This document shows, piece by piece, positions 4,728 through 48,705 of a stretch of DNA of 53,461 nt. The notes beneath the pieces are model-generated. The model searched no databases, was not told the origin of the DNA, and worked only from the letters and a program-made list of their open reading frames with translations. Each line of letters opens with the position of its first letter. Position 1 is the first letter of the stretch. The stretch covers positions 1-53,461 of the forward strand of contig CACXHF010000315.1 of NCBI GenBank assembly GCA_902767305.1, read 5' to 3'. This DNA is from an uncultured Eubacteriales bacterium. GTDB taxonomy: Bacteria > Bacillota > Clostridia > Christensenellales > Aristaeellaceae. Both the position numbers and the translations under genes were made by a program.

Positions 4728-7136
4728 TCAGGGACGAGGTGCCTGTATCCGAATATTGGTCAGGGCACACTGATCGCCTGTCACCGCCACGTAAACCTCT
4801 TTAATTTCTTCCCGGATAAACGTTTCATTACTGATTACAATACCAAGATTCTCTGTTTCTGTACGAATAACATTCCCGTCAACATGGAAATGGACTTCAT
4901 AATCGACTCCCTGCCTGTTGATCTTCTTAAAACTTTCCCATCCGGGAAATGCTTCTGTCTTGTGATCAGGCATTCGATTTTCAGAGTAATCGCCGCTCTT
5001 CCAGCTTTCCCCATCCATCCGGATAAGCGCATATTCATGATACCCTGCCCCATATGCTTTTCGATCCTCTGAATAGAACAAGACAATATACGGGCAATGC
5101 CAGACCAGTCTGGCCGTCGGAAGACTTATCGAGTGAAAGCTCACGGTCAGCCCATCACAGACGGGAATTCCCTCTGTGGCATTTGTCCGGTATCCGTTCA
5201 CCTGCACATTAGGAACATCTCCCGCCGGCTCATCGATATAGCTGATCATTTCCATGATCCGTGGAATATCTCCCTCAGATGCTGCAACTTCATCCTGAGA
5301 GATTATGAGATCCCCCAGTACACAGTGTTCGCCGGTCAGAGCAAGATAGAGGAATCTGGAACTGTCCGGGAGAGCCACAGTCACCTGAATCGTACGGATA
5401 GAACTGCCAATCCGGATCAGTGCATGATCCAAATACCGGACTGCTTCAATTTCATAATTGATTCCCTGTGTATTATTCTCCGTTGTATCGTTCAGCTCTG
5501 TGTCACTCTTATTCAGCTTGATTTCCGTCTGCATCTTCCGTGCTCCTGAGCAGACGGTTCTGCCATCGAAACGGATTTCCCCGTATTCAAAATACACCAT
5601 TTCCCGTTTTTCCGCGTCTTCACTATGAATCCGTTCATCCAGAGAATCAAAAAGGACCATGGAAGGCAGTGCATTTTCCGGAGATTCTCCATCCAGCACC
5701 CAGCTGTGCAGATGAATATGCGTCCTGTACTCAAAGATCCTGATTCCCTCAGAAAAAGCAGAACGATAGTCATCGCAGATCAGCTCGGTATCGCCCGACA
5801 GATCCCGAACTTCCGGTTTTTCCCGCATCAAATAACCGGTATCCTCATCAATCAGTTTCAGCATAATCCGTGCATAAACCGGATCAAACTGTGTTCCTAT
5901 TCCCTTGACAATTTCTTCACGCACGCGCTGCTGGGGAATCGGATCCCGGTAGCTGCGCTTGGATGTCATGGCATCATAGGAATCTGCCACAGCAATCACT
6001 CTGGAAACTTCAGGAATGTCCTCCCCTTTCAGTCCGTCCGGATAGCCTCTTCCATCATACCGTTCATGGTGAAAGTTTGCCCCGATGCTCAGATAAGGAG
6101 ACTGAGTAATATTCGAAAGTATTTTTTTCCCTATGACCGGGTGCTGCCTGATATAGTTATATTCCTCGTTGGTCAGTTTTCCCTCTTTGTTCAGAATAAC
6201 ATCCGGAATGCCAATCTTGCCTACATCATGAAGAAGCGCCGCATAGAAATATTCGTCGCATTCCTTTTCACTCTTTCCTGCATATCTGGCAATCATTTTC
6301 GCATATTTTGCTACCCGGGCTGAATGGCCGTGTGTATATTTATCCTTCGCATCAATCGATCTGGACAGTGCCTGCGCCGTCTGCAGATACAGACGTTCAA
6401 TCTTTTTCTGTTCCTGCTTCAGCATTTCAATCTCATGCTCTGCCGCCCGGTCAACAGTCTCATTCAGATCGATCAGTGCAAATATGAACACAAGCACTGC
6501 CATATTTACCAGTGTAACGTTAGTCAGGGAAATACCGTAGGTAAAATACTGCAGAATAGAGGCCGCAAATGGCAGAATGGTAAACAGAATCAGCGATGTC
6601 CTGATGTTACGTTTCAATTTGCCGCCGTACTTCAGAACAGCAGTAAGCTGCATGACCATCGTGGCAAACGGAGCAATATAACTGAACAGATAGACGGATG
6701 ATCTCTGATAATGATTGGTTGCATCAAATGTATAATAGAGTCCTGTAAACTGAGAAAGAATCACCAGAACTGCTCCGGCAATCAGCAGGATTCGGGCAAC
6801 TTTCAGTCGTCCCGGAACCTTTTCCAGTTTCCCTTCTTTGGTAAGAAGATCAATCAGATAGATGTTAAAGCTGTAAATCATCAGCAGTGTAAGAAAAAAG
6901 ACCAGGAAATTACTGATACGCACTATATAATAACCAAGCGTACTGACATTTCCGCGGAACGTGTACGCAAGCATATCCGAAATCAGCAGTAACATTGCGC
7001 TGAGTTCAATCATCATCAGTGCGGTTTTTCTCGCCGGACCTATTGCCCTTGTAAAGAATACAAATAATGCAATGATTCCGCATATACTGCTCAGCATAAG
7101 CATGATATGTGGCTGAGCCTGTCTGATAAATTCCAT
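4728..7136 (-). CDS. 7-TM HD-GYP domain c-di-GMP phosphodiesterase with a duplicated C-terminal domain of unknown function
   Basis: About seven hydrophobic helices span residues 1-225. The HD motif (ALLHDVGKIG) and the HHERYDGRGYP motif are present. Residues about 451-802 form two related modules of about 165 aa. Confidence 0.9.
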   Translation of the reverse strand: MEFIRQAQPHIMLMLSSICGIIALFVFFTRAIGPARKTALMMIELSAMLLLISDMLAYTFRGNVSTLGYYIVRISNFLVFFLTLLMIYSFNIYLIDLLTKEGKLEKVPGRLKVARILLIAGAVLVILSQFTGLYYTFDATNHYQRSSVYLFSYIAPFATMVMQLTAVLKYGGKLKRNIRTSLILFTILPFAASILQYFTYGISLTNVTLVNMAVLVFIFALIDLNETVDRAAEHEIEMLKQEQKKIERLYLQTAQALSRSIDAKDKYTHGHSARVAKYAKMIARYAGKSEKECDEYFYAALLHDVGKIGIPDVILNKEGKLTNEEYNYIRQHPVIGKKILSNITQSPYLSIGANFHHERYDGRGYPDGLKGEDIPEVSRVIAVADSYDAMTSKRSYRDPIPQQRVREEIVKGIGTQFDPVYARIMLKLIDEDTGYLMREKPEVRDLSGDTELICDDYRSAFSEGIRIFEYRTHIHLHSWVLDGESPENALPSMVLFDSLDERIHSEDAEKREMVYFEYGEIRFDGRTVCSGARKMQTEIKLNKSDTELNDTTENNTQGINYEIEAVRYLDHALIRIGSSIRTIQVTVALPDSSRFLYLALTGEHCVLGDLIISQDEVAASEGDIPRIMEMISYIDEPAGDVPNVQVNGYRTNATEGIPVCDGLTVSFHSISLPTARLVWHCPYIVLFYSEDRKAYGAGYHEYALIRMDGESWKSGDYSENRMPDHKTEAFPGWESFKKINRQGVDYEVHFHVDGNVIRTETENLGIVISNETFIREEIKEVYVAVTGDQCALTNIRIQAPRP

Positions 7137-9400: not shown

Positions 9401-9527
9401 TTTGAACCCTCCTCAAATGATTCTATATTTGATTTGCTTGAGATTATACCACATTTGATTCGTTCATCCCAGTCCCGGAATATGTTTCTTTATGGATTCT
9501 TCCCGTCCCGTCTTCATTTTCCCCGGA

Positions 9528-11432
9528 TCATGCAGTAATGGACATTTCGGCATTTCTCGCCATTATCTCCATCTGTGCGCCAATCGTCTGCGCCAGGCTG
9601 GCCGTCAGCCGTGCAGTAAATCCATTTCTGGGATCTGCCAATGCACGGATGATTTCCTCCTCGATTGCCTTTTCCTGTCGTTTAAGTCCGCGGCGCACAG
9701 CTTTCTCCGTCACTGCTGTCCTCAGAAGAAGAGGAATACGCACGGACCTGACGGCCTTTTCAAGCGTCGTTTTTCCAAGAAGGGCCAGCAGAAGTCCTGC
9801 TGAAGCCCCGGTAATCATTCCCACAGGACCCGTTCCAAGAATTGCTACACCGCCGCCACCGCAAAGTGCCGCACCGACCGCTGCCAGAACCACACCCATA
9901 ATTCCGGAGAAAATGTCCATTCCCATGGCGCTTGTCAGGGACAGTCCGACCCTGTCCAGACCGGTTTCCACATGTGCACTGCTCAGGGTCATTTGCTCAG
10001 ACGGAATGCCGCAACGGCAGCAGAGATCCATCAGACGGTCCTGAAGTCGGTCAGTCAGCCGGTCAAGCCAGTCCCGGATTGTCCCTGTAAGTCGTTTACG
10101 AACTTCCTCACCGGAAAAATCCTTCGAGATGCGTTCTTTCAGCACGCTGTCCAGATCATTGATCGTGTCAATCCCTCCGCGCTTCCACAGGCTGACCGTA
10201 TCTACTACGCTTTCCACAGAAGTTTCGTATAATGCCTTCGCTATCGGCTCATACAGTTCATGGACGCTGCTGCTTACCTGTGTATTCAGGTATTCTCCCC
10301 GGGAAAGAGACGCCACCTCCTCGCGGAACACCCGGAGATTTTCATCTACTCTGCCGCAGTAAGCCAGCCCCCGGGCAATGGAACACTCCGGTTCCGGACA
10401 CATGACCAGCAGAGAATCGTGAAACGCTTCGCGGCACTCCTCCTGCAGAAATGCCATACGCGATGCACCGCCGGTCAGAATGACTACCTGAGCCGGTTTT
10501 TCCTGACTGACACGAACAGCTGCTCTGAGTGCATCTCTCAGACATCCGCGAAAGCTTCTTCCGCCTATAGCCGGTATCGGCTCCGAAATCATTTCCTGAA
10601 CCATTTGTGCATCAATCTGCAGTTCAAGGGACAACGTTTCTTTATAACATACTACAACTCGTTTTTTCAGCGGTACTTCTTTCCATTTTTCCTCATCCAG
10701 AAAATACTGTTCCTTGATCCGCCTGGCCTCAAGTTCACAGTAACTATGCCAGGCAGGGCTTTCCTCCATCACTGCACGGAGTGCATCCCTGTCTCTGGAG
10801 CGATCAATGCATTTAGATAGTATCTGTTCATCCAAAAGTCCCCCGCCCAGGTTGGCATCGCCAAACAGCGAAAGACTCTGCTGATGTCCGTCGACAATAT
10901 AGGCAAAGTCCGTCGTACTCGAACCCACATCAATGACCAGAGCACTTTTCTGCATCAAGGCAGGATCTACGCGCAGTCCCCGTGCATGCCTTGCATACAT
11001 GAACGCAGCTCTGGACTCCGGTACAACGCTGACATTCGGAAAACCCGCGGATTCCATCAGGGCAGCATACTGAGACCTCCGTCCCTCACCCCATCCGGCA
11101 GGGCATCCGACAACTGTCGAACTGACCTCGGCCATCAGAGCTGGTTCTGTACGCGTCAGTTCACCGTATACGCCCTGCGCAAACCGGCGAATTTCCATGT
11201 GCGCCTCCGGATCAGTCAGATAACGGGATTTAAAGCGAACCTGTGTATTAACTGATCCCAGGAGAACACTTGCTGCTTCACCGACAACTATTTTTCCGTC
11301 CCGGTCACCAACTGCAGAAAGAATACTGACTTTCCCGCCGATAGGAATAACGCGCGGCTCTATCTTTGATGCCTCGTCCAGAATGGTGACCGCGCTCTCT
11401 CCGTCGCCCAGATCAAACCCGAGTATCTTCAT
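9528..11432 (-). CDS. Hsp70/actin-fold ATPase with a C-terminal helical region and a glycine-rich hydrophobic hairpin
   Basis: Motifs: phosphate-1 ILGFDLGDGES; VVGCPAGW...VVPESRAAFMYA; phosphate-2 VIDVGSSTTDFAYIV; GDANLGGGLLD; adenosine motif VVILTGGASRMAFL. Residues 503-553 are Gly/Ala/Leu-rich (GVVLAAVGAALCGGGGVAILGTGPVGMITGASAGLLLALLG). AGGAGGTGAGCAG precedes the ATG, and the start overlaps the upstream stop as ATGA. Confidence 0.8.
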   Translation of the reverse strand: MKILGFDLGDGESAVTILDEASKIEPRVIPIGGKVSILSAVGDRDGKIVVGEAASVLLGSVNTQVRFKSRYLTDPEAHMEIRRFAQGVYGELTRTEPALMAEVSSTVVGCPAGWGEGRRSQYAALMESAGFPNVSVVPESRAAFMYARHARGLRVDPALMQKSALVIDVGSSTTDFAYIVDGHQQSLSLFGDANLGGGLLDEQILSKCIDRSRDRDALRAVMEESPAWHSYCELEARRIKEQYFLDEEKWKEVPLKKRVVVCYKETLSLELQIDAQMVQEMISEPIPAIGGRSFRGCLRDALRAAVRVSQEKPAQVVILTGGASRMAFLQEECREAFHDSLLVMCPEPECSIARGLAYCGRVDENLRVFREEVASLSRGEYLNTQVSSSVHELYEPIAKALYETSVESVVDTVSLWKRGGIDTINDLDSVLKERISKDFSGEEVRKRLTGTIRDWLDRLTDRLQDRLMDLCCRCGIPSEQMTLSSAHVETGLDRVGLSLTSAMGMDIFSGIMGVVLAAVGAALCGGGGVAILGTGPVGMITGASAGLLLALLGKTTLEKAVRSVRIPLLLRTAVTEKAVRRGLKRQEKAIEEEIIRALADPRNGFTARLTASLAQTIGAQMEIMARNAEMSITA

Positions 11433-12271
11433 CTGCTCACCTCCTGCATCTGAACTGCCGCCACACCGCGCCGGATAATCCGTTCGCTGTTCACAAGTGC
11501 CGGGCGGACAGTCCGGCTCTTCCCTACCGTGGGCAGAAGCTCAAACATGGATGCATTTTCCGACGAATAACGAACCGCCTTTATCCCGATCCGGTGCAGA
11601 GCCTGTTCCGCCTCTGCAGCGTTCTCCACCAGCAGATCCTCCCGTCCGCTTTCCTTTGCCTCCAACAGTGCACTCACAAAATCCAGGAGCGCCTCTTCCT
11701 GTCCGCTCATCTTTCTCACCGTCTGCTCCGTATCGATCACGGCAAGGTCCTGCACGGCAATGTCAACCGCCTCGCAGATGGAGATCATTGTACGGACAAT
11801 GTCCGTCTCAACGTGTACGGTTCCTTCTGCTTTCCAGGTCTGCGTACTGCCGGGTGCCGCGCTGCTCATGCCGATATAGAGAAGCAGTACTGCTATCACG
11901 GCCAGAAGGGTAAAAATCCACCTGCCGCTGATCAGCTCATAAACAGCCAGCACAGCCAGCAACCCGACACCTCCGTACAGTGCAGCCGTTTTTGGTTTCA
12001 TCCGCCCCTCAGTTTCGTTCTCAGGCGCAGCTGCCACCAGCTTTCCCTCCGCACGTACGGCACGCAGAAGCGCTCCGGATTCCTTTGCCACCGCCAGAAC
12101 TGCCTGCTCCCGCTGACGTGTCACCTCATCTGTCTCCTCCTGAGCCAACAGAGCAGCGGTCCGCTCAAAGGCGATCCGGACAGCTGCTGCTGCCTCCTCC
12201 GCCGTCCCGGCCTGTCGTAAAGACTCTTCCAGAGCTGTCTGATTCGCTCTGAAGGCATCTGCTGTTTTCAC
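11429..12271 (-). CDS. two-TM membrane protein with a GrpE-like C-terminal segment (putative partner of the Hsp70-like ATPase)
   Basis: 280 aa. An Ala/Glu-rich helical N-terminus is followed by a hydrophobic hairpin (LYGGVGLLAVLAVYELISGRWIFTLLAVIAVLLLYIG). The C-terminal SRTVRPALV resembles the GrpE GRTIRPAMV signature. AAGAGGTG ribosome-binding site. The function is an inference. Confidence 0.6.
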   Translation of the reverse strand: MKTADAFRANQTALEESLRQAGTAEEAAAAVRIAFERTAALLAQEETDEVTRQREQAVLAVAKESGALLRAVRAEGKLVAAAPENETEGRMKPKTAALYGGVGLLAVLAVYELISGRWIFTLLAVIAVLLLYIGMSSAAPGSTQTWKAEGTVHVETDIVRTMISICEAVDIAVQDLAVIDTEQTVRKMSGQEEALLDFVSALLEAKESGREDLLVENAAEAEQALHRIGIKAVRYSSENASMFELLPTVGKSRTVRPALVNSERIIRRGVAAVQMQEVSR

Positions 12272-12328
12272 TCAATTCACCTCTTTAAAAAACCAGAGGA
12301 ATTCGGCAAGCCGGATTCCTCTGTCTGT

Positions 12329-14341
12329 TTACTGTTGTTCCGGGGCACTGTCTGTTTCACCATCTAAGACCGTGTAATCCTTCTCTGCATCCGGCGTATT
12401 CTCCTCAACGCCTCTGCCTTCCGATTCGGATTCATCGCGGACATGATAAGATGTTTCAACCTGCTGATCCGCTTTCTGCTCCCCTTCAGCCGCAGGCAGC
12501 TGATTGGGCGCAAGAATTGCCATAAACTCTATGCCGGTCAGAGTTTCCTTGTCAAGAAGCACTTTAGCCAGTTCATGCAGCTTTTCCTTATTATCATCCA
12601 GAATCTTATATGCATTCCGATAGCACTTAGCAATGGTGTCCCGAATCTCCGTATCGATTCTGGCAGTGGTCTCATCCGAACAAACCAGCTGCGAATCTCC
12701 GCTCAGGTACTGGCCGCTCTGTGTTTCAAGAGCCATCATGCCGAAAGTATCACTCATTCCAAGACGCGTTATCATCATTCTGGCCAGTTTGGTCGCCTGT
12801 TCAATGTCATTGCTGGCACCACTGGTAATCCGTCCAAAGACCAGAGCCTCTGCCGCACGTCCGCCGCAGAGTGTAGTAATCTTGTCGAGAATCTGCTCCT
12901 TGGTCATGAGCAGACGCTCTTCCTCGTCGACCTGCATGGTGTATCCCAGTGCACCGGAGGTTCTCGGAACAATCGTGATTTTCTCAACCGGAGATGCATT
13001 CTTCAGTTTGGCCGCAACCAGTGCATGACCGATTTCATGATAAGAAACCGTCAGCTTATCGCGCTCCGAAATCACCGCATTCTTTCTCTGGTAGCCGGCA
13101 ATAACCACCTCTATGGATTCCATGAGATCCTTCTGGGAAACCGCGCTGCGTCCGTTCTTGACAGCCGCAATGGCTGCCTCATTCACAATGTTGGCCAGCT
13201 CCGCACCGGAACATCCGCTGGTGGCACGAGCCACCTGATTGTAATCGATATACGTCTCCGTCTTCACCGCACGAGCATGAACCCGGAGAATAGCTTCGCG
13301 TCCAGCCAAATCCGGCAGTTCGACCGGAATACGTCGGTCAAAACGTCCCGGACGCAGCAGCGCCTTATCCAGAATTTCCGGACGGTTCGTAGCTGCCAGG
13401 ATGACAACACCCTTGCCTGCATCAAAGCCGTCCATTTCAGTCAGCAGCTGGTTCAGGGTCTGCTCGCGTTCATCATTACCGGCAAACCCGCTGGCATCTC
13501 TCTTCTTTCCGATTGCATCAATCTCATCGATAAAGACAATACAGGGAGCTTTTTCCCCGGCCTGCTTGAACAGGTCACGGACGCGGGCTGCGCCCATGCC
13601 GACGAACATTTCAACAAACTCTGAACCGGAAATGGAGAAAAACGGAACCTTGGCCTCACCGGCAACGGCCTTGGCCAGCAGGGTTTTACCCGTTCCCGGA
13701 GGGCCTACAAGAAGAGCTCCTTTCGGCAGTCTGGCACCAATGTCGCGGTATTTTTGCGGATTATGCAGAAAATCCACAATTTCCTTAAGCGCCTCCTTGG
13801 CCTCATCCTCGCCGGCCACATCCTCAAACGTCTTGCCTGTCTGTGCCTCAACATAAATCTTGGCATTGGACTTTCCGAATGACATGGCGTTTCCGCCCAG
13901 ACGGTCACCGATCCGCCGGAACATGAACATGCCAATCCCATAGAAAATCACAAGCGGCAGTACCCAGCTGATCAGGAAAGAGAGAATCGGTGACATCTGC
14001 TCCGGAACCACCTGATCAAAGGAAACGCCGGCTGCTGTCAGCCGTTCCACCAGCTTATCATCCGCCGTCACCCGGTTTGTCGTATAATAGGTCACCTTGT
14101 TATTATTTGTAAGGATGATGGACGCCGTCTCAACCGGCGTAAAGGCAATAGACGTATCATCAATCTGAACCGATTTGATTTCACCCTTTTCCAGCATCTG
14201 GATAAACTCCGAATACTGAACCTTCTTTACACTGTAGCGCTCAATCTGCGGGAACAGCAGTGCATTGAGCAGCATCACAACAACCAGTGCAATAATATAA
14301 TATATGATTAAGGGTTTGTTTGGATTCTTTTTTTCGTGCAT
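12329..14341 (-). CDS. ftsH: ATP-dependent zinc metalloprotease FtsH
   Basis: 670 aa with N-terminal TM helices, Walker [19 protein letters not shown], an SRH region and the zinc motif HEIGHAL. Confidence 0.95.
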
Positions 14342-14450: not shown

Positions 14451-15812
14451 TCAAATGTCAATTATGGCCGGAGACCATTTTCTCGGACAGACAGCATTTT
14501 CTGAACCAGACCGCCAGTCCCAGCGTTGCAGCCAGCAGCATTGCAAAAACAGCAGTCCAGCACCATCGCCAGTTTGCGGCATCTGTACAGTATCCGGATT
14601 TCCATCGCAGATCCGAACTCTTCGCAGAATCAGAGTACTCTCCAGAGACGGTGTCAGTCCTATCAGATACAGATACTCTCCCAGTACCGCACTGCGCGGC
14701 AGAAGAAACATTTCAGACGACGGATAAAAGCCTTTCGACAGGTTAAGCATCCAGTTTTCCGCCGGACACAGCACCAGCACATCGTTGTCATTGGTACTTC
14801 CTATCCACGGCACAGCGTCTGCTACCTCCATGGTGAGCGCCGTTTTCCCGTCAGTCGACAGTTGGCGTATGGACATCTTCAGATCATCTGACACCTGCAG
14901 AACAGCACCGTTTCTGTACAGAAAATAAGCCATGTTTCCATCAGAAGATGCATCTGCAAGATCAACGGAATCTGAACAGATTCCCCCGACGCTGTACAAC
15001 GGTTCCAGCCTGCCGCCCCGGAAAACACACAGCTTTGTATCGCTTCCCAGCGTGCAGAGCATGACCAGTTCACCGCCGGTCTGTGCAGCCATAAGCGGCT
15101 GATAAGGCGAGACATCTGTCTTGCGTTGAATCTCACCCTCCGACGAAAGAAAAATCATTGTCTGATCTTTCAGCAGCACTAGGTAATCCTCTGCAGCACA
15201 CATTCCGGAAATCATGTATGGAAACAAAGCCACTCGACGGCACGTTCCTGCATTCGGATCAATACAGTACAGCCGGCTTTCCTGTTGATTATACCCGATG
15301 TCAAAGCTGTTATTGCCTGCCGCATAGAGTTTTCCCTGAAAAGGCACCAGTGACGCTATGCGTATGTGTGTCAGTTCCCGCATTCCGCCCGGCACAACTG
15401 CCTCCAGCTTTCCAAATGTCCCGTTAAAATCCAGAATACGCGACCCGTTTTTTCCATCCGAAGACTGTATGCTGACCATACATTCACGGCCATTGAATGA
15501 TGTCGGCGCCACTGCCATAATTTCACTGTCTGACCAGGCAAGAATCCGTGCCGCACTCCCCCCGATCATCAATGTGCCAGCCTTATCGCCGAAAAAATGT
15601 CCGCGCACCTGTATTCCCTGCCCGTCACAGAATGCCTGCTGTGGAACAGGCACCGGTTTCTGACTGAGTGCATTCTGAAGGCTGGCAATTCCCCCGCTGA
15701 TACATTTTCCCTGCAATGACGGAACCTGAACCGCTGTCCCGACAATACGCGCTGCCAGCCGGTCTGCACTCTCTTCAGGGAATCTTTTTGCGAGAACAGT
15801 TGCCGTCGTCAT
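14451..15812 (-). CDS. IPT/TIG-like plus beta-propeller-like surface-protein gene, probably decaying (no signal peptide; sorting signal frameshifted)
   Basis: 453-aa ORF. An IPT/TIG-like segment (GIQVRGHFFGDKAGTLMIGGSAARILAWSDSEIMAVAP) is present. The C-terminal MPQTG motif is followed by an out-of-frame TM plus RK tail (see finding). Confidence 0.6.
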   Translation of the reverse strand: MTTATVLAKRFPEESADRLAARIVGTAVQVPSLQGKCISGGIASLQNALSQKPVPVPQQAFCDGQGIQVRGHFFGDKAGTLMIGGSAARILAWSDSEIMAVAPTSFNGRECMVSIQSSDGKNGSRILDFNGTFGKLEAVVPGGMRELTHIRIASLVPFQGKLYAAGNNSFDIGYNQQESRLYCIDPNAGTCRRVALFPYMISGMCAAEDYLVLLKDQTMIFLSSEGEIQRKTDVSPYQPLMAAQTGGELVMLCTLGSDTKLCVFRGGRLEPLYSVGGICSDSVDLADASSDGNMAYFLYRNGAVLQVSDDLKMSIRQLSTDGKTALTMEVADAVPWIGSTNDNDVLVLCPAENWMLNLSKGFYPSSEMFLLPRSAVLGEYLYLIGLTPSLESTLILRRVRICDGNPDTVQMPQTGDGAGLLFLQCCWLQRWDWRSGSENAVCPRKWSPAIIDI

Positions 15813-23642: not shown

Positions 23643-26210
23643 TTATTTAATCCGTTTCTTGTCCGCATCCTCAGAATGCTCCTCAGAACTGTCTGCCCGC
23701 CGCATGGAAAGAATGCATTTGACCTCGCTGAACGGATCCTTCACATAATCCACATCCACGACAAGATTAAGCAAACTGCCGTTTTTATTCAGCATCCGGA
23801 AGTGCTGCGTCATTCCCTGCTGGGTTTCAATACTTTTGAGTGCAATTTTCCAGAGAGCGCTCTCATTATCCGAAATCTGCTGTCGGCCGGTTTTTGCGGC
23901 ATTCAGTTTCTCTTCTATTTCTTTCCCGCTCATGCCTATTACATTTTCAAGGCCATGCGCAACAACCTCAAAGACATATTTGTCCTCTCTGGCAGTCAGA
24001 AAGAGCACCGTCCTTGAGACAAAGCGGGACAGAAGATCCATCTGCCTCTGAAGTTTGACAATATCCGTTACATCCCGTGCCGCACCATAAAAACGCTTTT
24101 TATCTCCGTCCATTCCCAGATAGTAAAAATGGATCAGAAACCGGACCATGGTATCATCCACTTTTCGGAAGGAAAGAACCCCCTGTGATCCGTTCAGGCG
24201 GTCATCCAGTGCTTTTTGCAGCACATCACTGAGTTTATGTACTTCCCCTGCGGGCATGTACTGCTGGATATTGACAAGCCGTCCCGTGAATTTGCCGTCA
24301 TGAACTGCCTGATAAAACTGCTGATTGAAACGGACAATATCCACCTGCTTTCCATCCCAGGCATAGATGGCTGCCGGGCCGATGATCTGATTAAGCATGG
24401 AATCAGAATATACATCCTTATTCAGGAACTCACGAATATGGAATTCTTCATTAAATTTGAATGTGAATCCCTGGAGTTCGATATTCCTGACATCCCGGAT
24501 CAGTTCCTCAAAAGACCACTTGGGCATGGGTTTATAGAAATAGTATCCCTGGATATACCGGCATCCAAGACTCATCAAATATGCACTCTGCTCTGTGGTT
24601 TCCACGCCCTCCACGATAATCGGCATGGACATGGTTTTAGCCATATTCACCACTGACTCAATGATGTGCATACCTTTTTTCATGGTTGCCTCGTCCATAC
24701 GCATGAAAAAGGCATCCAGCTTGATCATGTCCACATTCAGCTCGCGCAGCATGTTAAGTGAAGAAAAGCCGCTTCCAAAGTCATCCATCAGGACCATGAA
24801 CCCCATGTTGCGGAATGTCTGCACAGCATTGCGCACCCGGTCAGAATCCTCCCCATAGGCTGATTCAGTGATTTCCACTTTGATTGCCTCTTTGGGAATG
24901 CCGTACTTTTTCACCAAGCCTTCGAAATAAGCCGGAACATCCATAGTAAAAATATCCACCGGACTGATGTTGACCGAAATAGGAATAACAGGATTTCCTC
25001 TGTCGATTAACTGTTTGCAGAATATGCAGACTTCCTCCCAGATATGCCGGTCCAGATCCGGAACTAATCCATATTTCTCCAGAGTCTGAACAAACACACT
25101 CGGCGGAATCATAGTTCCATCCGTCCGGATCCAGCGTGCCAGCGCCTCTGCACCGACAATTTTCCCATTAACTGCCCGGCACTGAGGCTGCAGATAGAAT
25201 GTTATTTCTCCGTTGGTCAGAGCTTTCTTGAAATCCGAAAGAACTTTATAGTCCACCGCTGTCTGACGAATCAGAGAGTCAGAATAGAATACCACCCGGA
25301 TTCTGTAATCCTTCTTCGCTTCCTGACAGGCCAACATTGCCTCATCGTACAGAGTGTAGATTCCCCGTTCCCCGTTGGAATAGCAGACACCGACAGCAGG
25401 AAGGAATCCGATAGATACCCCCGCATCAGAAAGAACGATCTGCAGACGGCGATACAGCTCGTCTGGTCTGAATCCATCTGCCCTGATGAGCAGGATGAAA
25501 TCATCTCCGCCCATATACGCAGCAATCCCATCATGCATCTTTGCCGTTTCAGACAGTTCCTGTCCGATACCTGAGAGAATCCGGTCACCGAGATCCCGCC
25601 CGTACCATTCATTAAGGAGTTTGAAATGCTGAAGATCAATAGCCACAAGCATCCAGTTGACCTTGGTATCTGCCAGTATTATATTGGCAGCTGAATAAAA
25701 GTCCTTTTCCCTTGGCAGACTGGTCAGCGCATCCAGGTATTCCACTTTCGGATAGGAAACCCGTGTTTTTCCTTCTTCACGATCCTTTCTCGTCTGAATA
25801 TCAAACACATAGCAGTAGATACATCCCTTCGGCACCCCATGCTTTCCGCCACTGATCACGAACTGCTCACACCAACGCCATTCACCATTTGGCCTTTTGG
25901 CACGAAACTCAAAGTTCACTATGCCATTCCTGGCCTTCAGCTGCTCAGGAAGCGTATCCGGATTCATTACATCCAGATAGAGGGACCGTTCATCCGGATG
26001 GACCAGACGGTTTGCAACATAGAGATAAAGCGAGCTGTAGTTGCCTTCCAGATCGGGAATTGTATATTTCTGCTCCACATTGAAGATAAATGTGTATGTA
26101 TCCTTTTCAAGATCTATGGAGATCAGTTCATCAAAAGAAGAAAGCTCAAGGAAATCCACTACCGGAAATTCCGGATGTTCCGCAACAAATCGCGCTATCG
26201 TTTCTGCCAT
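23643..26210 (-). CDS. PAS-like / GGDEF (GGDDF variant) / EAL / PAS-PAS multidomain c-di-GMP turnover protein
   Basis: 855 aa. GGDEF-domain core DLQHFKLLNEWYGRDLGD...MGGDDF. EAL-domain motifs EALARW, EITES, DDFGSGFSSL and EGVET. About 270 aa of PAS-like sequence follows the EAL domain. Confidence 0.9.
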   Translation of the reverse strand: MAETIARFVAEHPEFPVVDFLELSSFDELISIDLEKDTYTFIFNVEQKYTIPDLEGNYSSLYLYVANRLVHPDERSLYLDVMNPDTLPEQLKARNGIVNFEFRAKRPNGEWRWCEQFVISGGKHGVPKGCIYCYVFDIQTRKDREEGKTRVSYPKVEYLDALTSLPREKDFYSAANIILADTKVNWMLVAIDLQHFKLLNEWYGRDLGDRILSGIGQELSETAKMHDGIAAYMGGDDFILLIRADGFRPDELYRRLQIVLSDAGVSIGFLPAVGVCYSNGERGIYTLYDEAMLACQEAKKDYRIRVVFYSDSLIRQTAVDYKVLSDFKKALTNGEITFYLQPQCRAVNGKIVGAEALARWIRTDGTMIPPSVFVQTLEKYGLVPDLDRHIWEEVCIFCKQLIDRGNPVIPISVNISPVDIFTMDVPAYFEGLVKKYGIPKEAIKVEITESAYGEDSDRVRNAVQTFRNMGFMVLMDDFGSGFSSLNMLRELNVDMIKLDAFFMRMDEATMKKGMHIIESVVNMAKTMSMPIIVEGVETTEQSAYLMSLGCRYIQGYYFYKPMPKWSFEELIRDVRNIELQGFTFKFNEEFHIREFLNKDVYSDSMLNQIIGPAAIYAWDGKQVDIVRFNQQFYQAVHDGKFTGRLVNIQQYMPAGEVHKLSDVLQKALDDRLNGSQGVLSFRKVDDTMVRFLIHFYYLGMDGDKKRFYGAARDVTDIVKLQRQMDLLSRFVSRTVLFLTAREDKYVFEVVAHGLENVIGMSGKEIEEKLNAAKTGRQQISDNESALWKIALKSIETQQGMTQHFRMLNKNGSLLNLVVDVDYVKDPFSEVKCILSMRRADSSEEHSEDADKKRIK

Positions 26211-40673: not shown

Positions 40674-42377
40674 TCAGTAGACTGCATTGAGACCGACAAA
40701 CCTGAACGGCTTCTTTTCCTGTTCAAGCTCAGTCAGAACGATATCCAGTGCCTCTGCTGTATATACTGCAGTATCAGAGAAATGCATAACGATAACTGCT
40801 CCGCTCCGGATGTTCCTCTTGATCTGCCGCGCCAGCGTTTCTGCACTCTCCGCCTTATAGTCACTGGAAGTATAGAACCCGGAAATACTGTGTGTAAATC
40901 CACAGTCAAACACAGCGGTCAGACCTTTTTTGCCGACAGCAAGCGTTGGTGGCCGGAACAGAAGACTCAGAGAAGCCTTTCCGTTGGCATCACGCATATC
41001 ACCTATGACATCCTGCATCGCATTATAGCTGATAACCATGTCATCGCGCAGTTCTTCTGCCTCTTCATCACTCAGCTCCGCATAATTTGTCCCTGTGATT
41101 TCGTTTGAAAGTTTCAGATGTTGATGCGTATGGCAGCCAATGGTATGTCCTGCTTTGGCAATTGCCCGTAAAAGGTTCGGATTATACGGCATGTATTGCG
41201 TACGTACAAAAAATGTCGCTGTCGCATGGTGTTTCTCCAGTACCTGAAGAAGCTGGTCCACTGTTCCATCCGTTCCCCAGTCGTCAAAGGTCAGGAATAC
41301 CATGTTCTCCTCATTGGGAATTAACCCGCGTTTGTCCATTTTCTGGATTTCCGAAAGCTCAAATCCCGGGAGAAACCGGCGGCTGTTGACCCAGTCTATT
41401 CCCACATATCCCTTTGTAATACGCTCCATGATTTCCTGATCGGACAGACCATCAAGATATCCGGGATGAATCCGGTCAAGCACCTCGGACAGAATCCGGT
41501 TTCGGGGCACCGGATAGGTATACCTTTCCGCCACGTCAGCGGCAACCATTGCCGCAGACTGAACCGGATAGACACAGTTGGTTTTAATCAGTGCATTCAG
41601 CAGTTCAGGAAGCAGAAAATCATTATGCTGAATCAGGCCCATCTGAAAGTGAACAATCTCACCTCTCTGGAATTTTCCATCATTGACCGATACAACAAGA
41701 GGAAGAGCATCTTCGACGCTGGTCATGCGGGTAATATTCTGAGAAACAACCTCTTTCATCTGTGAAAGGACTTCAAGTCCACAGGAACCTGCAGCGTTCA
41801 AAAGGACCTGAGAAGCAGCGCCGTATGTTGAGCGTACAAAGATCTGTTCATTTTCTCCAAATTCACTGCGAAGCAGATCGCTGGCCGCCATCAGTTTTTC
41901 TTTGAGAGCACTCACACTGGTATGCGCATCCGGCTGAATGGAGAGTCCAAGATTATGTCCGGCTTTTTTAATTGCATGTACCAGATCACTGCTTTTTTCG
42001 AGTTCATCCAGAGTGACGAAAAAAGTCGCACTGCTGCCCGTATTTCTGAGAACATCCAGCACACCATTGACCTCCGTCACGTTAGTGAGGCCGGAAAACG
42101 TAAAGACAGTGGCACGCCGGGTCGTATAAAACCGTGGCTTCACCTCTGCCCGGATGTACCCGTCAGTCAGCTCTTCGTATTTTTTCACTTCCTGTGTCTG
42201 TACCGTCGGTTCTACTGCCTCGTACGGCCGATACAACTCCTCCGGCATGATCTTCGTTTCCTTCTTCTCCGGAAACTGTATCGGATTCCGGATAAAATAG
42301 AAACCGATTCCGATAAATGCCGTAGTCAGCACCAGCAAAAACACCATCAGAAGAATCTGACGACCTTTTCGATTCAT
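40674..42377 (-). CDS. membrane-anchored protein with two CE4 (NodB) polysaccharide deacetylase domains, the first degenerate and the second canonical
   Basis: N-terminal TM helix ILLMVFLLVLTTAFIGIGFYFI. Domain 1 has FTFSG in place of TFDDG. Domain 2 has LTFDDWG, GHTIGCHTHQH, LFRPP and VIVMHFSD. Confidence 0.85.
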   Translation of the reverse strand: MNRKGRQILLMVFLLVLTTAFIGIGFYFIRNPIQFPEKKETKIMPEELYRPYEAVEPTVQTQEVKKYEELTDGYIRAEVKPRFYTTRRATVFTFSGLTNVTEVNGVLDVLRNTGSSATFFVTLDELEKSSDLVHAIKKAGHNLGLSIQPDAHTSVSALKEKLMAASDLLRSEFGENEQIFVRSTYGAASQVLLNAAGSCGLEVLSQMKEVVSQNITRMTSVEDALPLVVSVNDGKFQRGEIVHFQMGLIQHNDFLLPELLNALIKTNCVYPVQSAAMVAADVAERYTYPVPRNRILSEVLDRIHPGYLDGLSDQEIMERITKGYVGIDWVNSRRFLPGFELSEIQKMDKRGLIPNEENMVFLTFDDWGTDGTVDQLLQVLEKHHATATFFVRTQYMPYNPNLLRAIAKAGHTIGCHTHQHLKLSNEITGTNYAELSDEEAEELRDDMVISYNAMQDVIGDMRDANGKASLSLLFRPPTLAVGKKGLTAVFDCGFTHSISGFYTSSDYKAESAETLARQIKRNIRSGAVIVMHFSDTAVYTAEALDIVLTELEQEKKPFRFVGLNAVY

Positions 42378-42380
42378 AGT

Positions 42381-43397
42381 TTACTCCCTGTCAAGATTAC
42401 CGTACACATTTAATTCAGATACAGGCTCCGTCTTTGCCTGAAGGAACTTTTCAAGTGATTCCGTTTCATTTCCGGAAAGCCGGAACAGATCGAAGTGATG
42501 ATACCCCATTTTTTCCAGATGCTGACGCCATGTCAGCAGGGTCGTTCCATCCGCATACCAGAGGGTCCCTCCGGTTTTACCGGGAATCTCCGCCTTCATC
42601 GCTCCACTGTCAGAATCACGTTCCGGTTTTACACCGTTTTCTGCAAGAAATTCGACAGCATCTTTTTCTCGAAGTGCCCGCACAACTTTCCCTGAGTTCC
42701 AGAGAAATCCACCGGTTGAAAATGCCATACGCACCTTTCCGGGAACACTCTGCCAGTTAGTTCCGACCTCGCTCAGAAAAGGAAGGTCCGCTTTAGGCCC
42801 TGGTCCGCTGTGATAGCCATACAGGTTATAACACATACAGATATACTCCGGTCCCTCCGGCAGTGAACAGTAGATCGGTGCAGTACATTCGAGAACCACC
42901 CGAAGCGCAATGCCGTCCCGGCTGAGAATCGCATGGAGTCGCGTGATAAAGGCAGCAAAGTCCGCCCAAAGCTCCTGATCCTTTTTTAAATTCTCGTAGT
43001 CGATCTCAAGCCCTGCCAGATGACAGGTATCCACCAGCTTGAGAATCTCGTCAATATGCATTCTCTGTGCATTCTCGCCCTTAAGGTGTTTTATCAGAAA
43101 ATCCTTCGATTTCTGGACGATTTTTCCGTCCTCTATCTCGACATCATTAACCAAAGATAAATAGACATTCGGACGCTCAAGTGTCTGAAGCATGTTTTCA
43201 GTCTCCTCAGGCAGAATCACCGTTCCGTTCTGAGAAAAATATGCCTCGAAACAGATCACCTCATCCAGACTGCTCTCAAATCTGGCAGCTTCCTCCAGTG
43301 CGCCATCCGCATCCCAGTAGGTCAGCCACGCACCGTTTTCCATCAGTCCGTCAACAGGAACAAGCAGTAGCAGCAGAAACGTCAGTAGTTTCCTCAT
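42381..43397 (-). CDS. secreted GH18-like glycoside hydrolase
   Basis: Short signal peptide. AGLEIDYENL aligns with the GH18 DGxDxDWE motif: the catalytic Glu and the neighbouring Asp are kept, while the first two Asp are replaced by Ala and Glu. Confidence 0.65.
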   Translation of the reverse strand: MRKLLTFLLLLLVPVDGLMENGAWLTYWDADGALEEAARFESSLDEVICFEAYFSQNGTVILPEETENMLQTLERPNVYLSLVNDVEIEDGKIVQKSKDFLIKHLKGENAQRMHIDEILKLVDTCHLAGLEIDYENLKKDQELWADFAAFITRLHAILSRDGIALRVVLECTAPIYCSLPEGPEYICMCYNLYGYHSGPGPKADLPFLSEVGTNWQSVPGKVRMAFSTGGFLWNSGKVVRALREKDAVEFLAENGVKPERDSDSGAMKAEIPGKTGGTLWYADGTTLLTWRQHLEKMGYHHFDLFRLSGNETESLEKFLQAKTEPVSELNVYGNLDRE

Positions 43398-43410
43398 TCG
43401 TCTCCTCCTG

Positions 43411-45318
43411 TTATTTAAACAGATTTCTGAAAATGCGAATTACACGGTCCACAAAACCGACATTGGTTATCGTTTCCTCCACCGATTCTGCATAGGAGTA
43501 TACCTCAGGTCCGATGGAACTCGAAATCCGCAGATCCCTGAAAACAGCATCATAGACATCATCGGAAAGGTTTGTCTGGCTGAAGCGTTCATTATCCATG
43601 GTCACCTGAGAACCCAGTACCAGCCGTGTTCCTCTGCCTTCTGATACCTTCAGGTGATCGATAATCAGTCGGTCATCCAGCCAAAGACTGATCCGTGACC
43701 CTGAGCACTGAATCCGCAGCTGCCGGTCGTCCTGTTCATCGATATCCAGTTCAGGAATAAACGGCTCTGCGCCTTCTTGAATTGACAGAACACGAAGGGT
43801 ATTCAGATAATCCAGATTTGTCTGTGCCTCTGCCCGGCGTGCCTCATCCTCATCGTAAGCAATGATCGCCTCACAGCAGGCGATTTTCCCTGCCAGTTCG
43901 TTTTCCGGGACAGATTCATACGGACCTCCGTCAAATTCCAGGAGATCCAGTTCAAAAATCGGAGCATCTCCCGACGGATCATAGATATAGAGACAGTTAT
44001 TATGCAGGCATACAGTTACCCCGCCTTCACCGTTTTCATCCGTCTTCATCGAGATGGACTGCTGACCTACCACATTTCCCTGCAGCCGGACGCTCAGTTC
44101 AAAATCAGGCGGCAGCTCCTTGCCAAGAACAATCGTTCCTTTTCCGTAAGGCATGGAAGTCAGAATAATCCGATGATCAGAATATTCTGCAACACCCTCA
44201 AGACGCTCCCAGGCTTTTGCCTGCTCTTCATCTCCAAGACGGAACATGACCTGATGTCCGGTATCGTCCCAGATTCTCATCATCAGATGATTTGCTGAGA
44301 AATACTGTCTGGATTGCAGGCGGGACAGATCATACACTGAGGAATCCATCATATTGAGGCAAGTCCCCTGCCGGTTGAAATTCATGCCGAAGACCTTCTG
44401 CATCATTTCTTCATTCTTGCGGCTTACCAGCGGGTCGTTCCCATATGCCCCGGTATTGGAATGCATCAGAATATAGAGTGAGGGAACAAAGCCGAAATCC
44501 TGATTGTACAGTTCAGCCATTTTTCCATAATCCCATTCGATGCGCTTTTCCATTTCCTCCACCGATTCCTGACGGAGACGATTTTCATCCCGAAGAAAAT
44601 CCATGAGATAATGGTTGTAATCACGCCTCAGATAATGATGCACTTTCAGAAACTCCGCCGTATTCATGTGCCCGAAATAGTTTTCATAGCGGTCAAATAT
44701 GTTAATGTAGCTGAGCCGGTATCCATTGGATCCCATCTCCCAGTAGGAGGAATCCATCAGTTCACGGGCAGACTTGCCCGTTACATACAGATTTTCAGTG
44801 TCGGACAGATTCTCTGCATAGGTACACATGGTGGCTTTGTAATTACACGCTTCAAGGGTTGGCTGAACCCATATGGCGCTGTCATTGATGCCGTCTTCAA
44901 AAATCAGCAGCATCGCTTTTTCCGGCAGATTGGCCCCATTCTTATACGCCCGCAGGATATCCTCCTGGGAGATCGTCTGATAACCGGATGCCTTCAGAGT
45001 CTGCATCTGTTCCTTGAACGCCTGAAGATTGACAATCTTGCCGCCTTCAATAGGCTTTACTACCACTCCATTATATGCAAGAGCTATGAAATGCGTTCCT
45101 GAGGCATGTCCCATGCTATCATATCCCTCTGTAATCAAATCGGAGGGAATCATGGTACTCTCATTTGCCGGCGGCAGGGCACTTGGATTGGATCGTGATT
45201 CTTTATAACTTTTCAGAGATAAAAACACCCATACAACAGCGAAAATCATGACCAGCAATTCAAAAACAGTCCGAATTACTTTCAGTCGGTTTTTTCGCCG
45301 CAGCCATCTGTCATCCAT
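43411..45318 (-). CDS. single-pass membrane protein: variant CE4/PgaB-like deacetylase domain plus a C-terminal beta-sandwich-like domain
   Basis: TM helix VFELLVMIFAVVWVFLSL. LAYNGV aligns with the usual MYH.V, and LLIFEDGINDS with TFDDG. The C-terminal approximately 250 aa were not assigned to a family. The start overlaps the synthase stop (ATGGATGA). Confidence 0.7.
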   Translation of the reverse strand: MDDRWLRRKNRLKVIRTVFELLVMIFAVVWVFLSLKSYKESRSNPSALPPANESTMIPSDLITEGYDSMGHASGTHFIALAYNGVVVKPIEGGKIVNLQAFKEQMQTLKASGYQTISQEDILRAYKNGANLPEKAMLLIFEDGINDSAIWVQPTLEACNYKATMCTYAENLSDTENLYVTGKSARELMDSSYWEMGSNGYRLSYINIFDRYENYFGHMNTAEFLKVHHYLRRDYNHYLMDFLRDENRLRQESVEEMEKRIEWDYGKMAELYNQDFGFVPSLYILMHSNTGAYGNDPLVSRKNEEMMQKVFGMNFNRQGTCLNMMDSSVYDLSRLQSRQYFSANHLMMRIWDDTGHQVMFRLGDEEQAKAWERLEGVAEYSDHRIILTSMPYGKGTIVLGKELPPDFELSVRLQGNVVGQQSISMKTDENGEGGVTVCLHNNCLYIYDPSGDAPIFELDLLEFDGGPYESVPENELAGKIACCEAIIAYDEDEARRAEAQTNLDYLNTLRVLSIQEGAEPFIPELDIDEQDDRQLRIQCSGSRISLWLDDRLIIDHLKVSEGRGTRLVLGSQVTMDNERFSQTNLSDDVYDAVFRDLRISSSIGPEVYSYAESVEETITNVGFVDRVIRIFRNLFK

Positions 45319-47131: not shown

Positions 47132-47145
47132 AGATCTTCCTCTGT

Positions 47146-48705
47146 TTACTCTGGCATATGCATCTGAACAAAGGACAGGAATGTCTCACATCCGGCATCA
47201 TTCAGATGCTTTCCGTAAGTCACTGCATCCAGACAGTACGAAGCGTCCAGTGCACCCGTCTTGTCACGAAGGGGAAATGCGGCGTCCACAAATCCCAGAC
47301 CGTACATTCTCGCCATGGCACATAACATCAGATTCAGTCTGAATCGCTGTTCATTTCCGATACCTGTGTAGCCCTCAAGACGTGGTGGAATACTCATCAC
47401 GATAATTCGGACATCCGGATTCTGCTTGCGAATGCGGTAAATCAGCAGCCGGTAATTTGTCAGATAAGCCTCCCGTTTATATCCCTCAGAGCTTGCAAAT
47501 CCAAGACACAGCCAGACACTGCGGGGTCTCATCTGCTGCAGACGGTCTTCTATAGGTTCTACCCTTCTGAGAAGTGATTCAACCGTCATATTGTTTTCTG
47601 TCAGGAATACAGCATCCGAGAAATATGATGGGTTGACCTGCCGGCGCCACTGTACATAATCACCGACACCAGCCATTACTGAATCTCCAATAAAGACAGC
47701 ACCGTTGAATTCCTCCTGGGCTCCCGCCCGAGTACGGCCAGCTGTCAGCGGCTCTTCTGTTACCGGAAGCTCATCTTTTTTATACGTAAGAAGTGCTTTT
47801 TCATTCTCACTGAGTTCTCTCTTTTTTTCGAGCAACGTAACATGTGAACTCTCAAGGTCCCCAAGACTCACCAGCTTGAAGCCATCGTTCCTCAGCCAGT
47901 CCACCAGCCAGCCAATCATTGTCGGAAGTTCGACAAATTTTTCATCCGTAGATTCCCATTCCCTGCGAATACCGGGGCTTGGGTCAATCGCCGGCCGTTC
48001 GTCGAGCTTATTTCCCTCATCACCAAACTCGTCTTTATCCAGTTCCTGCCCCAGCTTAACTGAAATAATGCTGCCTAAAATTACAGATTCTGTATAAACA
48101 CCGGCGTCGCCTTCATTTTTAAAACTGCGGTGATTCAGGTATACACTGGGTTCTACCGCTTCTTTTATTCCGGCTGCCGTGACAGCACGAAGAACATCGT
48201 CCGTATATACTGTTCCGTTGCAGCGGATATAGGCAGGACGGGTGCCGACGGCATTTTCGATCAGGTTCTGCGTTTTGGTAAACTGCTCCGCATTCTGATA
48301 CGCAGGCAGCCGTTCCAGCTTTTTCGCCCCGCTCATTCCATAATTTCCGATATCAAATCCCATTTCGGCGACTTTCTTAAGAAGATCTCCATGCTCATCC
48401 GCCGTAACCCCCGACACAAAGAAGGTTGTGGGAACACCACGATCCCGCAAAATCTGAGCAATTGCCTCCACAGTGAGATCGTCTGTATATCCCTCAAAGA
48501 TCAGAGCAACGACTTTCTGATCTGTTTCCACTCTGCTCAGGAGTTTGGCAGGCGCAGCATCAATACGCGGCATCGGCGTCGGTGTTACCCGTTTCACCTC
48601 TGTTTCGGGAATATCCTCTGTCTTCCGTGAAAAGGCTGAACAGCCGGAAATCAGAAAGAGGAGACTGAACAGGGACAGAAGTGCCGCAAACAATCTGTTA
48701 CTCAC
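47146..48705 (-). CDS. lipoprotein: degenerate CE4-like domain plus an SGNH/GDSL-type hydrolase or acyl-esterase domain
   Basis: GTG start at 48705, 5 nt after GGAGG, overlapping the upstream stop (GTGAGTAA). Lipobox LLFLISGC. CE4-like VALIFEGYTDD...TTFFVSG...GFDIGNYGMSG lacks the His-His metal ligands. GDS block AVFIGDSVMAG. Confidence 0.7.
   Translation of the reverse strand: MSNRLFAALLSLFSLLFLISGCSAFSRKTEDIPETEVKRVTPTPMPRIDAAPAKLLSRVETDQKVVALIFEGYTDDLTVEAIAQILRDRGVPTTFFVSGVTADEHGDLLKKVAEMGFDIGNYGMSGAKKLERLPAYQNAEQFTKTQNLIENAVGTRPAYIRCNGTVYTDDVLRAVTAAGIKEAVEPSVYLNHRSFKNEGDAGVYTESVILGSIISVKLGQELDKDEFGDEGNKLDERPAIDPSPGIRREWESTDEKFVELPTMIGWLVDWLRNDGFKLVSLGDLESSHVTLLEKKRELSENEKALLTYKKDELPVTEEPLTAGRTRAGAQEEFNGAVFIGDSVMAGVGDYVQWRRQVNPSYFSDAVFLTENNMTVESLLRRVEPIEDRLQQMRPRSVWLCLGFASSEGYKREAYLTNYRLLIYRIRKQNPDVRIIVMSIPPRLEGYTGIGNEQRFRLNLMLCAMARMYGLGFVDAAFPLRDKTGALDASYCLDAVTYGKHLNDAGCETFLSFVQMHMPE

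Follow-up and report, generated by a model that had tools for sequence, protein, structure and literature searches.

Two adjoining genes on the (-) strand of a 53,461-nucleotide (nt) contig from an uncultured Eubacteriales bacterium (CACXHF010000315.1, assembly GCA_902767305.1; the whole stretch is referred to below as the window) are the subject of this analysis. The downstream gene (9528-11432) encodes an Hsp70-like protein of 634 amino acids (aa), hereafter the ATPase, and the upstream gene (11429-12271, GTG start) encodes its 280-aa partner, a predicted two-transmembrane (TM) cofactor from an unannotated family. The pair is preceded by ftsH (12329-14341; 670 aa; TIGR01241, E 4e-232), the end of which is separated from the partner gene by 57 nt on the same strand; all window coordinates given below also refer to the (-) strand. 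The stop codon of the partner gene and the start codon of the ATPase gene overlap by 4 nt (ATGA, 11429-11432). A Shine-Dalgarno sequence, GGAGGTG, is located at 11438-11444, within the last partner codons and 5 nt before the ATPase start, and the partner gene has its own, AAAGAGGTG, at 12278-12286, 6 nt ahead of the GTG codon. The pair is translationally coupled and, judged from the sequences, both genes are real, since they are kept as proteins in 41 other loci. The sizes of the open reading frames (ORFs), the ATGA overlap, the distance to ftsH, the two hydrophobic hairpins and the peptide SRTVRPALV, all listed in a preliminary description of this region, were found to be present by inspection of the sequence and its hydropathy.

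Residues 1-362 of the ATPase (10347-11432) were assigned to an Hsp70-type nucleotide-binding domain (NBD) by hhalign and Foldseek. The protein scored above the threshold of the Pfam HSP70 family (PF00012; 38.4 bits against a cut-off of 20.6, E 6e-10, residues 95-362), and DnaK NBDs were recovered over residues 3-332 in a sequence search of the PDB. The ATPase family profile was aligned with Escherichia coli DnaK by hhalign with a probability of 98% (E 1e-13; residues 2-339 against 3-359), all four Hsp70 subdomains being colinear. In this alignment D7, E139, D168, T173, D175 and G321G322 of the ATPase are paired with D8, E171, D194, T199, D201 and G341G342 of DnaK, the pairing of K68 with K70 is ambiguous, and the phosphate-1 (GFDLGDGES), phosphate-2 (VIDVGSSTTDFA) and adenosine (ILTGGASRM) motifs match those of DnaK. 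The motif and catalytic residues are invariant in 26 homologues of 61-88% identity and in four distant ones of 34-41% identity. When an AlphaFold2 (AF2) model of the protein, with a predicted local distance difference test score (pLDDT) of 66.5, was searched with Foldseek, ranks 1-44 were occupied by DnaK, Hsc70, BiP and mortalin chains (E 5e-9 to 1e-6, probability 1.0). Among 1646 database relatives, those with names are called 'Hsp70 family protein'. The complete Hsp70/actin-fold NBD with its three motifs that had been proposed for this protein was thus upheld by Pfam, hhalign and Foldseek alike. ATP binding and hydrolysis would be expected, since the nucleotide-binding and catalytic residues are conserved. 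The invariance extends to four cysteines, C110, C333, C471 and C524, kept down to 34% identity; among them are one in the NBD motif VGCPAGW, one in LCxR just ahead of the hydrophobic hairpin described below and one at the hairpin tip, LCGGxG, a pattern that might reflect a redox, metal or lipidation site.

No substrate-binding domain (SBD) or lid was found in the ATPase: the Pfam, NCBIfam, PDB sequence search and DnaK hhalign alignments all stop at about residues 339-362, as had been anticipated. The DnaK and HscA equivalog models of NCBIfam gave about 30 bits for this protein, against cut-offs of 620-822 (for DnaK, 31 against 822). Because nothing aligns past about residue 362 and the equivalog scores are far under their cut-offs, the 634-aa protein is, on these comparisons, a member of the Hsp70 superfamily, but not DnaK, HscA or HscC.

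The SBD is replaced by a helical region (residues 363-502; 9927-10346), a glycine-rich hydrophobic hairpin (residues 503-553; 9774-9926) and a basic helical tail (residues 554-634; 9531-9773), an arrangement read from the letters at the outset and supported by hydropathy, charge counts and the AF2 helices. The first of these parts comprises predicted helices at 359-378, 380-389, 391-417, 424-439 and 442-474, and includes a conserved LCxRCGVP motif. The hairpin coincides with the one long hydrophobic stretch of the protein (residues 501-553), which contains a CGGGG turn and many small-xxx-small motifs; in the turn, LCGGxGxA, the residues C524, G525, G526, G528 and A530 are invariant down to 34% identity. 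The tail has 15 Lys/Arg residues against 9 Asp/Glu (net charge +6), is predicted to be helical over 554-633 and is kept through a final AEMSI/AEIPI motif. A profile of the last 270 residues found no Pfam family and no PDB relative, dynamin-like proteins included, its best, non-significant match being the colicin A pore domain (E 0.21). The PADLOC LeoBC profile (positions 385-536) weakly matched residues 429-605 in four of five diverse members (E 2.5e-4 to 3.8e-4); the LeoBC-like stretch up to the end of the hairpin (residues ~429-553) corresponds to 9774-10146 in the window and reaches on to residue 605. In LeoB the matching part is described as binding membranes and as lying between the middle domain and the GED (PMC4159319). 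We treat this weak similarity as a lead and not as a finding.

The partner has no match in Pfam, NCBIfam, PADLOC or the PDB. An exhaustive profile search placed it in a family of 657 clusters at 50% identity (E<=1e-3; 389 at E<=1e-10), the members of which are nearly all 265-330 aa long, colinear from end to end and named only 'hypothetical protein'; they originate from Christensenellaceae, Oscillospiraceae, Eubacteriales and other Bacillota. As the preliminary description had it, and as sequence, hydropathy and the AF2 model (pLDDT 73.8) agree, the protein is composed of a helical, Ala/Glu-rich N-terminus, a TM hairpin and a C-terminus carrying SRTVRPALV. The N-terminal domain (residues 1-85; 12017-12271), defined by AF2 and alignment conservation, is 39% Ala+Glu and is predicted to form four helices at 3-9, 11-20, 24-44 and 49-70 (pLDDT ~80-88), with a conserved D48...R52 junction. 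The hairpin (residues ~96-138 by Kyte-Doolittle hydropathy; 11858-11986) comprises predicted membrane helices 93-115 and 118-137 with the turn SGR, and is predicted to leave the N- and C-terminal domains facing the same membrane side. The predicted cytoplasmic C-terminal domain (residues ~150-280; 11432-11824), a GrpE-like candidate according to AF2 and hhalign, consists of a 51-residue helix (157-207), a short helix (218-227) and five short strands (230-274), with a pLDDT of 79-87 over residues 220-270. Across 43 diverse partners D170, F243, P247, T254, P257 and G269 are invariant, and the C-terminal consensus, which includes the T-x-RPAL motif, is GIExVxY..E....FDxLP......TxRPAL..DGxLLxRGxA. 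A J-domain hidden in the N-terminus was ruled out (hhalign probability of 0.1% against the J-domain of DnaJ), DnaJ is absent from the 25 Pfam families listed for the 43 members, and no J-domain (HPD) pattern occurs anywhere in the 53-kb window, in keeping with the earlier remark that no J-domain gene lies nearby; a J-protein could still be encoded elsewhere in the genome.

Conservation of the pair was followed in two sets of loci, which are designated by L numbers where they have to be told apart. The close set comprised 37 species-representative genomes with ATPases of 59-89% identity, all from uncultured Clostridia or Christensenellales of guts or rumens. The partner gene is located directly 5' of the ATPase gene in 35 of the 36 close genomes that have upstream sequence, and the 4-nt ATGA overlap was found again in 24 loci. 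For the distant set, four partners only 20-25% identical to that of the window were traced to their contigs; the clusters of the ATPases encoded there bear the names Candidatus Limiplasma, 'Clostridiales bacterium' and Sarcina sp. in three cases. In all four, the partner gene is followed immediately by a gene for a PF00012 protein of 629-679 aa that shares the whole architecture of the ATPase, including the LCGGxGxA hairpin turn. Partner and ATPase thus stay together down to identities of about 20% and 34%, respectively. Small ORFs rich in Lys, Ala, Ser and Gly (74-159 aa) were observed directly 5' of the partner gene in L039 (5490-5969), L041 (5721-5978) and L042 (5743-5967); two of them begin with MxxKKGIxGF and none is present in the window. 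As a third conserved component they were dismissed, being of low complexity and not conserved. A phage or plasmid origin was likewise rejected: IMG/VR contained no relatives of the ATPase, and a tblastn search of PLSDB with the C-terminal module was empty. The pair is a conserved, self-contained, chromosomal and vertically inherited unit of Clostridia.

The position of ftsH is a different matter. It was found 5' of the pair in 6 of the 37 close genomes, which all belong to the closest clade, and at none of the four distant loci; it directly adjoins the pair in L001-L004 and L037 and is separated from it by a LuxR-type gene in L005. More often the neighbour is a pseudouridine synthase gene, transcribed divergently in about 22 of the 37 close loci and in the same direction as the pair in three of the four distant ones. 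Downstream of the pair, nagB and nagA are found in Christensenellales-like loci. Other annotated neighbours are dacB, ytfJ, a DUF896 gene and genes for an HD-GYP protein and glycosyltransferases. Adjacency to ftsH would thus be a local accident, produced by a rearrangement in one sublineage.

Expression signals were then compared. Between the ftsH stop codon and the ribosome-binding site of the partner gene, the 57-nt spacer of the window holds an intrinsic-terminator-like hairpin with a U6 run (12287-12323), predicted to fold with 12 pairs in two helices (-18 kcal/mol) and followed by GUUUUUU; no room is left there for a promoter. The hairpin is kept in L001-L003, with changes confined to the loop and the surroundings. 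Transcripts of the pair in the closest clade presumably arise by reading through the ftsH terminator; alternatively, the hairpin may be a regulated attenuator. A consensus promoter, TTGACA-N16-18-TA[CT]AAT, was found 40-110 nt 5' of the partner gene in 25 of the 41 loci. This promoter lies within the palindrome GTCAATTGAC, which provides overlapping -35 hexamers to two back-to-back promoters, the other being that of the divergent pseudouridine synthase gene. The perfect palindrome is embedded in a highly conserved sequence, CGGTCAATTGACAAAG-N-GGTACAAT, in L007-L036 (e.g., at ~5053 in L012 and ~5082 in L023), and it could serve as an operator. Heat-shock control by HrcA was considered and rejected, as no CIRCE element was present within three mismatches in the window or the 41 loci. 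The consensus promoter together with the absence of a CIRCE operator points to constitutive and not heat-shock expression of the pair. No terminator was detected after the ATPase gene. The nagB gene has its own extended -10 promoter, TGGTATAAT (9441-9453), about 40 nt 5' of its start, and nagB-nagA are therefore probably transcribed independently of the ATPase gene.

A functional link between the pair and FtsH, or a conserved ftsH order, is consequently not supported, because ftsH is upstream only in the closest clade, a terminator-like hairpin lies between, and elsewhere the pair has a promoter of its own. Of the module originally envisaged, a membrane Hsp70 with a partner working beside FtsH, the NBD, the missing SBD, the membrane hairpins and the tight coupling have stood, but the FtsH part has not, and the ftsH neighbourhood is best regarded as a misleading cue and not as a conserved feature.

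The picture that we favour, and for which we see the case as evenly balanced, is that of a membrane-embedded Hsp70-type machine with a dedicated cofactor, the C-terminus of which regulates nucleotide exchange, expressed constitutively and next to ftsH only locally. Both hairpins would lie in the cytoplasmic membrane with all soluble domains in the cytoplasm, and the ATPase and its partner would form a complex there. The C-terminal domain of the partner, possibly a diverged GrpE, would bind the lobes of the NBD and so control the exchange of ADP for ATP. Nucleotide-driven movements of these lobes might then be passed to the helical stalk and the hairpin instead of to a peptide-binding domain, and the output might act on the membrane (its shape, repair or packing) or on membrane-embedded clients.

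The proposed role of the partner depends on its relation to GrpE, which was examined with an alignment of 55 non-redundant GrpE sequences from 80 metagenome loci together with those of E. coli and Geobacillus and human GrpEL1. When compared with it by hhalign, the 43-member partner alignment gave a probability of 56.5% (P 1.1e-4, score 37.4), and the C-terminal slice alone 65% (P 6e-5). The match is colinear over about 110 columns (partner 153-264 against E. coli GrpE 45-197), with the strand IKAV paired with VEVI and RTVRPALV with RTIRAAMV. As controls, (i) the reversed GrpE alignment scored 17.7, (ii) 60 block-shuffled alignments scored 23.9 +/- 4.3 with a maximum of 35.9, so that 0 of 60 reached 37.4, and (iii) unrelated profile pairs gave probabilities of at most 4%. 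The signal rose with the diversity of the partner alignment, from 6.7% for alignment A1 to 56% for A3; the lower values of narrower alignments (6.7% and 1.8%) are as would be expected for a real but remote relationship. The predicted order of a long helix, a short helix and a small C-terminal beta domain also fits GrpE, and the order of the partner and ATPase genes mirrors grpE followed by dnaK.

Several observations weigh against this picture, most of them directed at GrpE. PF01025 matched none of the 43 (and none of 20) partner members even at E<=10, and searches of 214 partners with a GrpE hidden Markov model (HMM), and of 85 GrpEs with a partner HMM, gave scores at the level of reversed-sequence controls. 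Profile searches of the PDB found no GrpE, the top matches of the C-terminal slice being designed helical bundles, and a Foldseek search with the whole partner model returned no GrpE in the top 50 and nothing significant (best E 0.2). For the hhalign alignment to hold, about 16 residues of the GrpE beta domain have to be deleted, and some 15 residues are left over at the C-terminus. AF2 gave a mediocre model for the ATPase (below a pLDDT of 50 in the hairpin), so that the geometry of stalk and hairpin is to be read as secondary structure only. One related locus, L014 (JAFUTW010000045.1, 5157-7905), is the sole one without an adjacent partner: its ATPase (66% identity) has kept the consensus promoter, and a cytidylyltransferase-like ORF occupies the place of the partner gene. 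Finally, the biological output of the pair is wholly inferred. NCBIfam, too, gave no GrpE match for the partner. The initial suggestion of a GrpE-like C-terminus has therefore fared unevenly: the profile-profile comparison stands above all controls, but Pfam, HMM-against-sequence searches, PDB profiles and Foldseek find no GrpE. On these comparisons, we put GrpE ancestry of the partner at about one half; its membership of the family is not established.

These results have to be set against other explanations, of which we consider one distinctly possible, if the less favoured. According to this, the ATPase depends on the partner as a membrane cofactor, be it an anchor, an assembly factor or a regulator, that neither descends from GrpE nor acts as an exchange factor, the RT-x-RPA-L-V sequence being convergent. 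The failure of all sequence-level and fold-level tests for GrpE, the generic helical bundles at the top of the PDB matches and an aligned beta domain that is unlike that of GrpE in length and strand order speak for it; the profile-profile signal above every control, colinear over its ~110 columns, the fitting order of predicted secondary structure and a prior raised by the adjoining Hsp70 NBD in grpE-dnaK order speak against it. A bolder version of the membrane-embedded machine, in which an Hsp70 head on a stalk-hairpin-stalk like that of dynamins or mitofusins, cycled by a membrane-anchored factor derived from GrpE, forms a hitherto unrecognised class of nucleotide-driven membrane-remodelling machine, and a fourth kind of prokaryotic Hsp70 besides DnaK, HscA and HscC that acts on bilayers and not on polypeptides, seems to us unlikely.

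The remaining explanations are less probable still. Work with FtsH in membrane-protein quality control, the ATPase handing membrane substrates to the protease, would agree with the location of ftsH immediately 5' and on the same strand in the window and five close relatives (a sixth, L005, having the inserted gene), and with possible read-through transcription from ftsH where no promoter is visible between. We hold it to be improbable, given that 31 of the 37 close and all four distant loci have no upstream ftsH, that a conserved terminator hairpin, and in L005 a LuxR-type gene, intervene, and that the pair has a promoter of its own in most species. A membrane-tethered, actin-like polymerising or scaffolding ATPase in the manner of FtsA, MreB or PilM, with the partner as its membrane receptor, could account for the precomputed Pfam MreB_Mbl matches of many homologues, the weak Actin and PRTRC_D (ParM-like) matches and the one Mbl model at Foldseek rank 45; but Pfam, NCBIfam, the PDB sequence search, hhalign (98%) and Foldseek (ranks 1-44) all place Hsp70 first, with four subdomains colinear, and such a role appears very improbable. 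We give least credence to a conflict or anti-phage module akin to the GTPase-centred systems of HSP70, GrpE and SBD-less HSP70 or to the dynamin-type LeoABC defence. HSP70, GrpE and an NBD-only HSP70 do occur together in GAP1-N2 GTPase systems, as described by Kaur et al. (PMC7159879), and the C-terminal module has its weak LeoBC match (four of five members, best E 2.5e-4). Nevertheless, no linked conflict-type GTPase, tubulin, FNIII protein or effector was present among the annotated genes of the window and the four distant loci, the place of the pair among housekeeping genes is stable and syntenic, phage genomes in IMG/VR lack relatives of the ATPase and plasmids lack the C-terminal module, and PADLOC returned no match for the pair besides LeoBC. 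The only GTPase seen near the pair is an Era-type gene (KH_2 + MMR_HSR1) in L041.

Elsewhere the window looks like ordinary chromosomal DNA, with ispH, an S1 protein gene, dnaX, pgm, cyclic di-GMP (c-di-GMP) enzymes and an exopolysaccharide locus. A c-di-GMP-related gene cluster (4728-7136, 23643-26210 and 40674-48786) includes genes for an 802-aa membrane HD-GYP-type protein (HD_5) and a PAS-GGDEF-EAL protein. One operon encodes a PilZ-domain family-2 glycosyltransferase, similar to chitin or cellulose synthases, and two polysaccharide deacetylases, and is probably a c-di-GMP-controlled exopolysaccharide system; its ORFs at 43411-45318 (635 aa) and 42381-43397 (338 aa) have no Pfam match (E<=1e-5; E<=1e-3). 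The 453-aa ORF located 5' of ftsH (14451-15812) has only a faint IPT/TIG match and is 55% identical in L001 and L002.

Literature searches found no characterised homologue of the pair, as had been supposed at the outset. It resembles the DnaK-GrpE system in its Hsp70-type NBD with aligned catalytic residues, in a cofactor gene immediately 5' of the ATPase gene and in the moderate profile-profile match of the partner C-terminus to GrpE, including the R-x-x-RPA-x-V strand. It differs in lacking an SBD and lid, a J-protein gene nearby (in the window) and a CIRCE/HrcA operator, in the TM hairpins of both proteins, in the extra N-terminal helical domain of the partner and in the failure of GrpE to appear in Pfam, HMM and Foldseek searches. 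A review of bacterial Hsp70s (Mayer 2021, PMC8215388) distinguishes three prokaryotic types, DnaK, HscA and HscC, each of them soluble and equipped with a peptide-binding domain, and a term search of it returned no passage on a membrane-inserted Hsp70. The same source states that HscC, a specialised Hsp70, is thought to be active at the plasma membrane with the tail-anchored J-proteins DjlB and DjlC, and that HscC and many non-proteobacterial DnaKs lack a lobe-I segment (DnaK residues 76-101). The ATPase family shares this trait, its hhalign alignment with DnaK having a gap of about 26 residues there. However, HscC is described there as soluble, as retaining its SBD, as recruited by membrane J-proteins and as thought not to use GrpE, whereas the ATPase of the pair is itself predicted to be membrane-inserted and has no SBD. 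The terms for a transmembrane, membrane-anchored or membrane-bound GrpE-like factor were absent, on a term search, from a 2025 review of GrpE-like factors (PMC12987570).

The nearest published analogue, by description only, is the combination of HSP70, GrpE and SBD-less HSP70 reported in GAP1-N2 GTPase conflict systems of firmicutes and actinobacteria (Kaur et al. 2020, PMC7159879). These systems are built on GTPases, FNIII, DnaJ and TPR proteins and effectors, none of which is linked to the pair, and the description consulted makes no mention of membrane insertion, whereas the pair has a housekeeping syntenic context and both its proteins are predicted to be membrane-inserted. BDLP1, LeoBC and the mitofusins (PMC4159319) have in common with the ATPase an NTPase head, helices, a glycine-rich hydrophobic membrane hairpin and C-terminal helices, but the head of the ATPase is that of an Hsp70, with no Dynamin_N or GTPase match in Pfam or NCBIfam; the resemblance is architectural and unproven.

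What sets the pair apart is an ATPase without a client-binding domain, the predicted insertion of both proteins into the membrane and their co-inheritance among the Clostridia dominant in gut and rumen communities, Christensenellales and Oscillospiraceae included. A partner that truly acts as an exchange factor would show that the Hsp70 nucleotide cycle is able to power a task besides peptide binding, and the pair would offer a defined system of two proteins for testing this. If it does not act in this way, the partner would still represent a large unannotated family with a clear binding partner.

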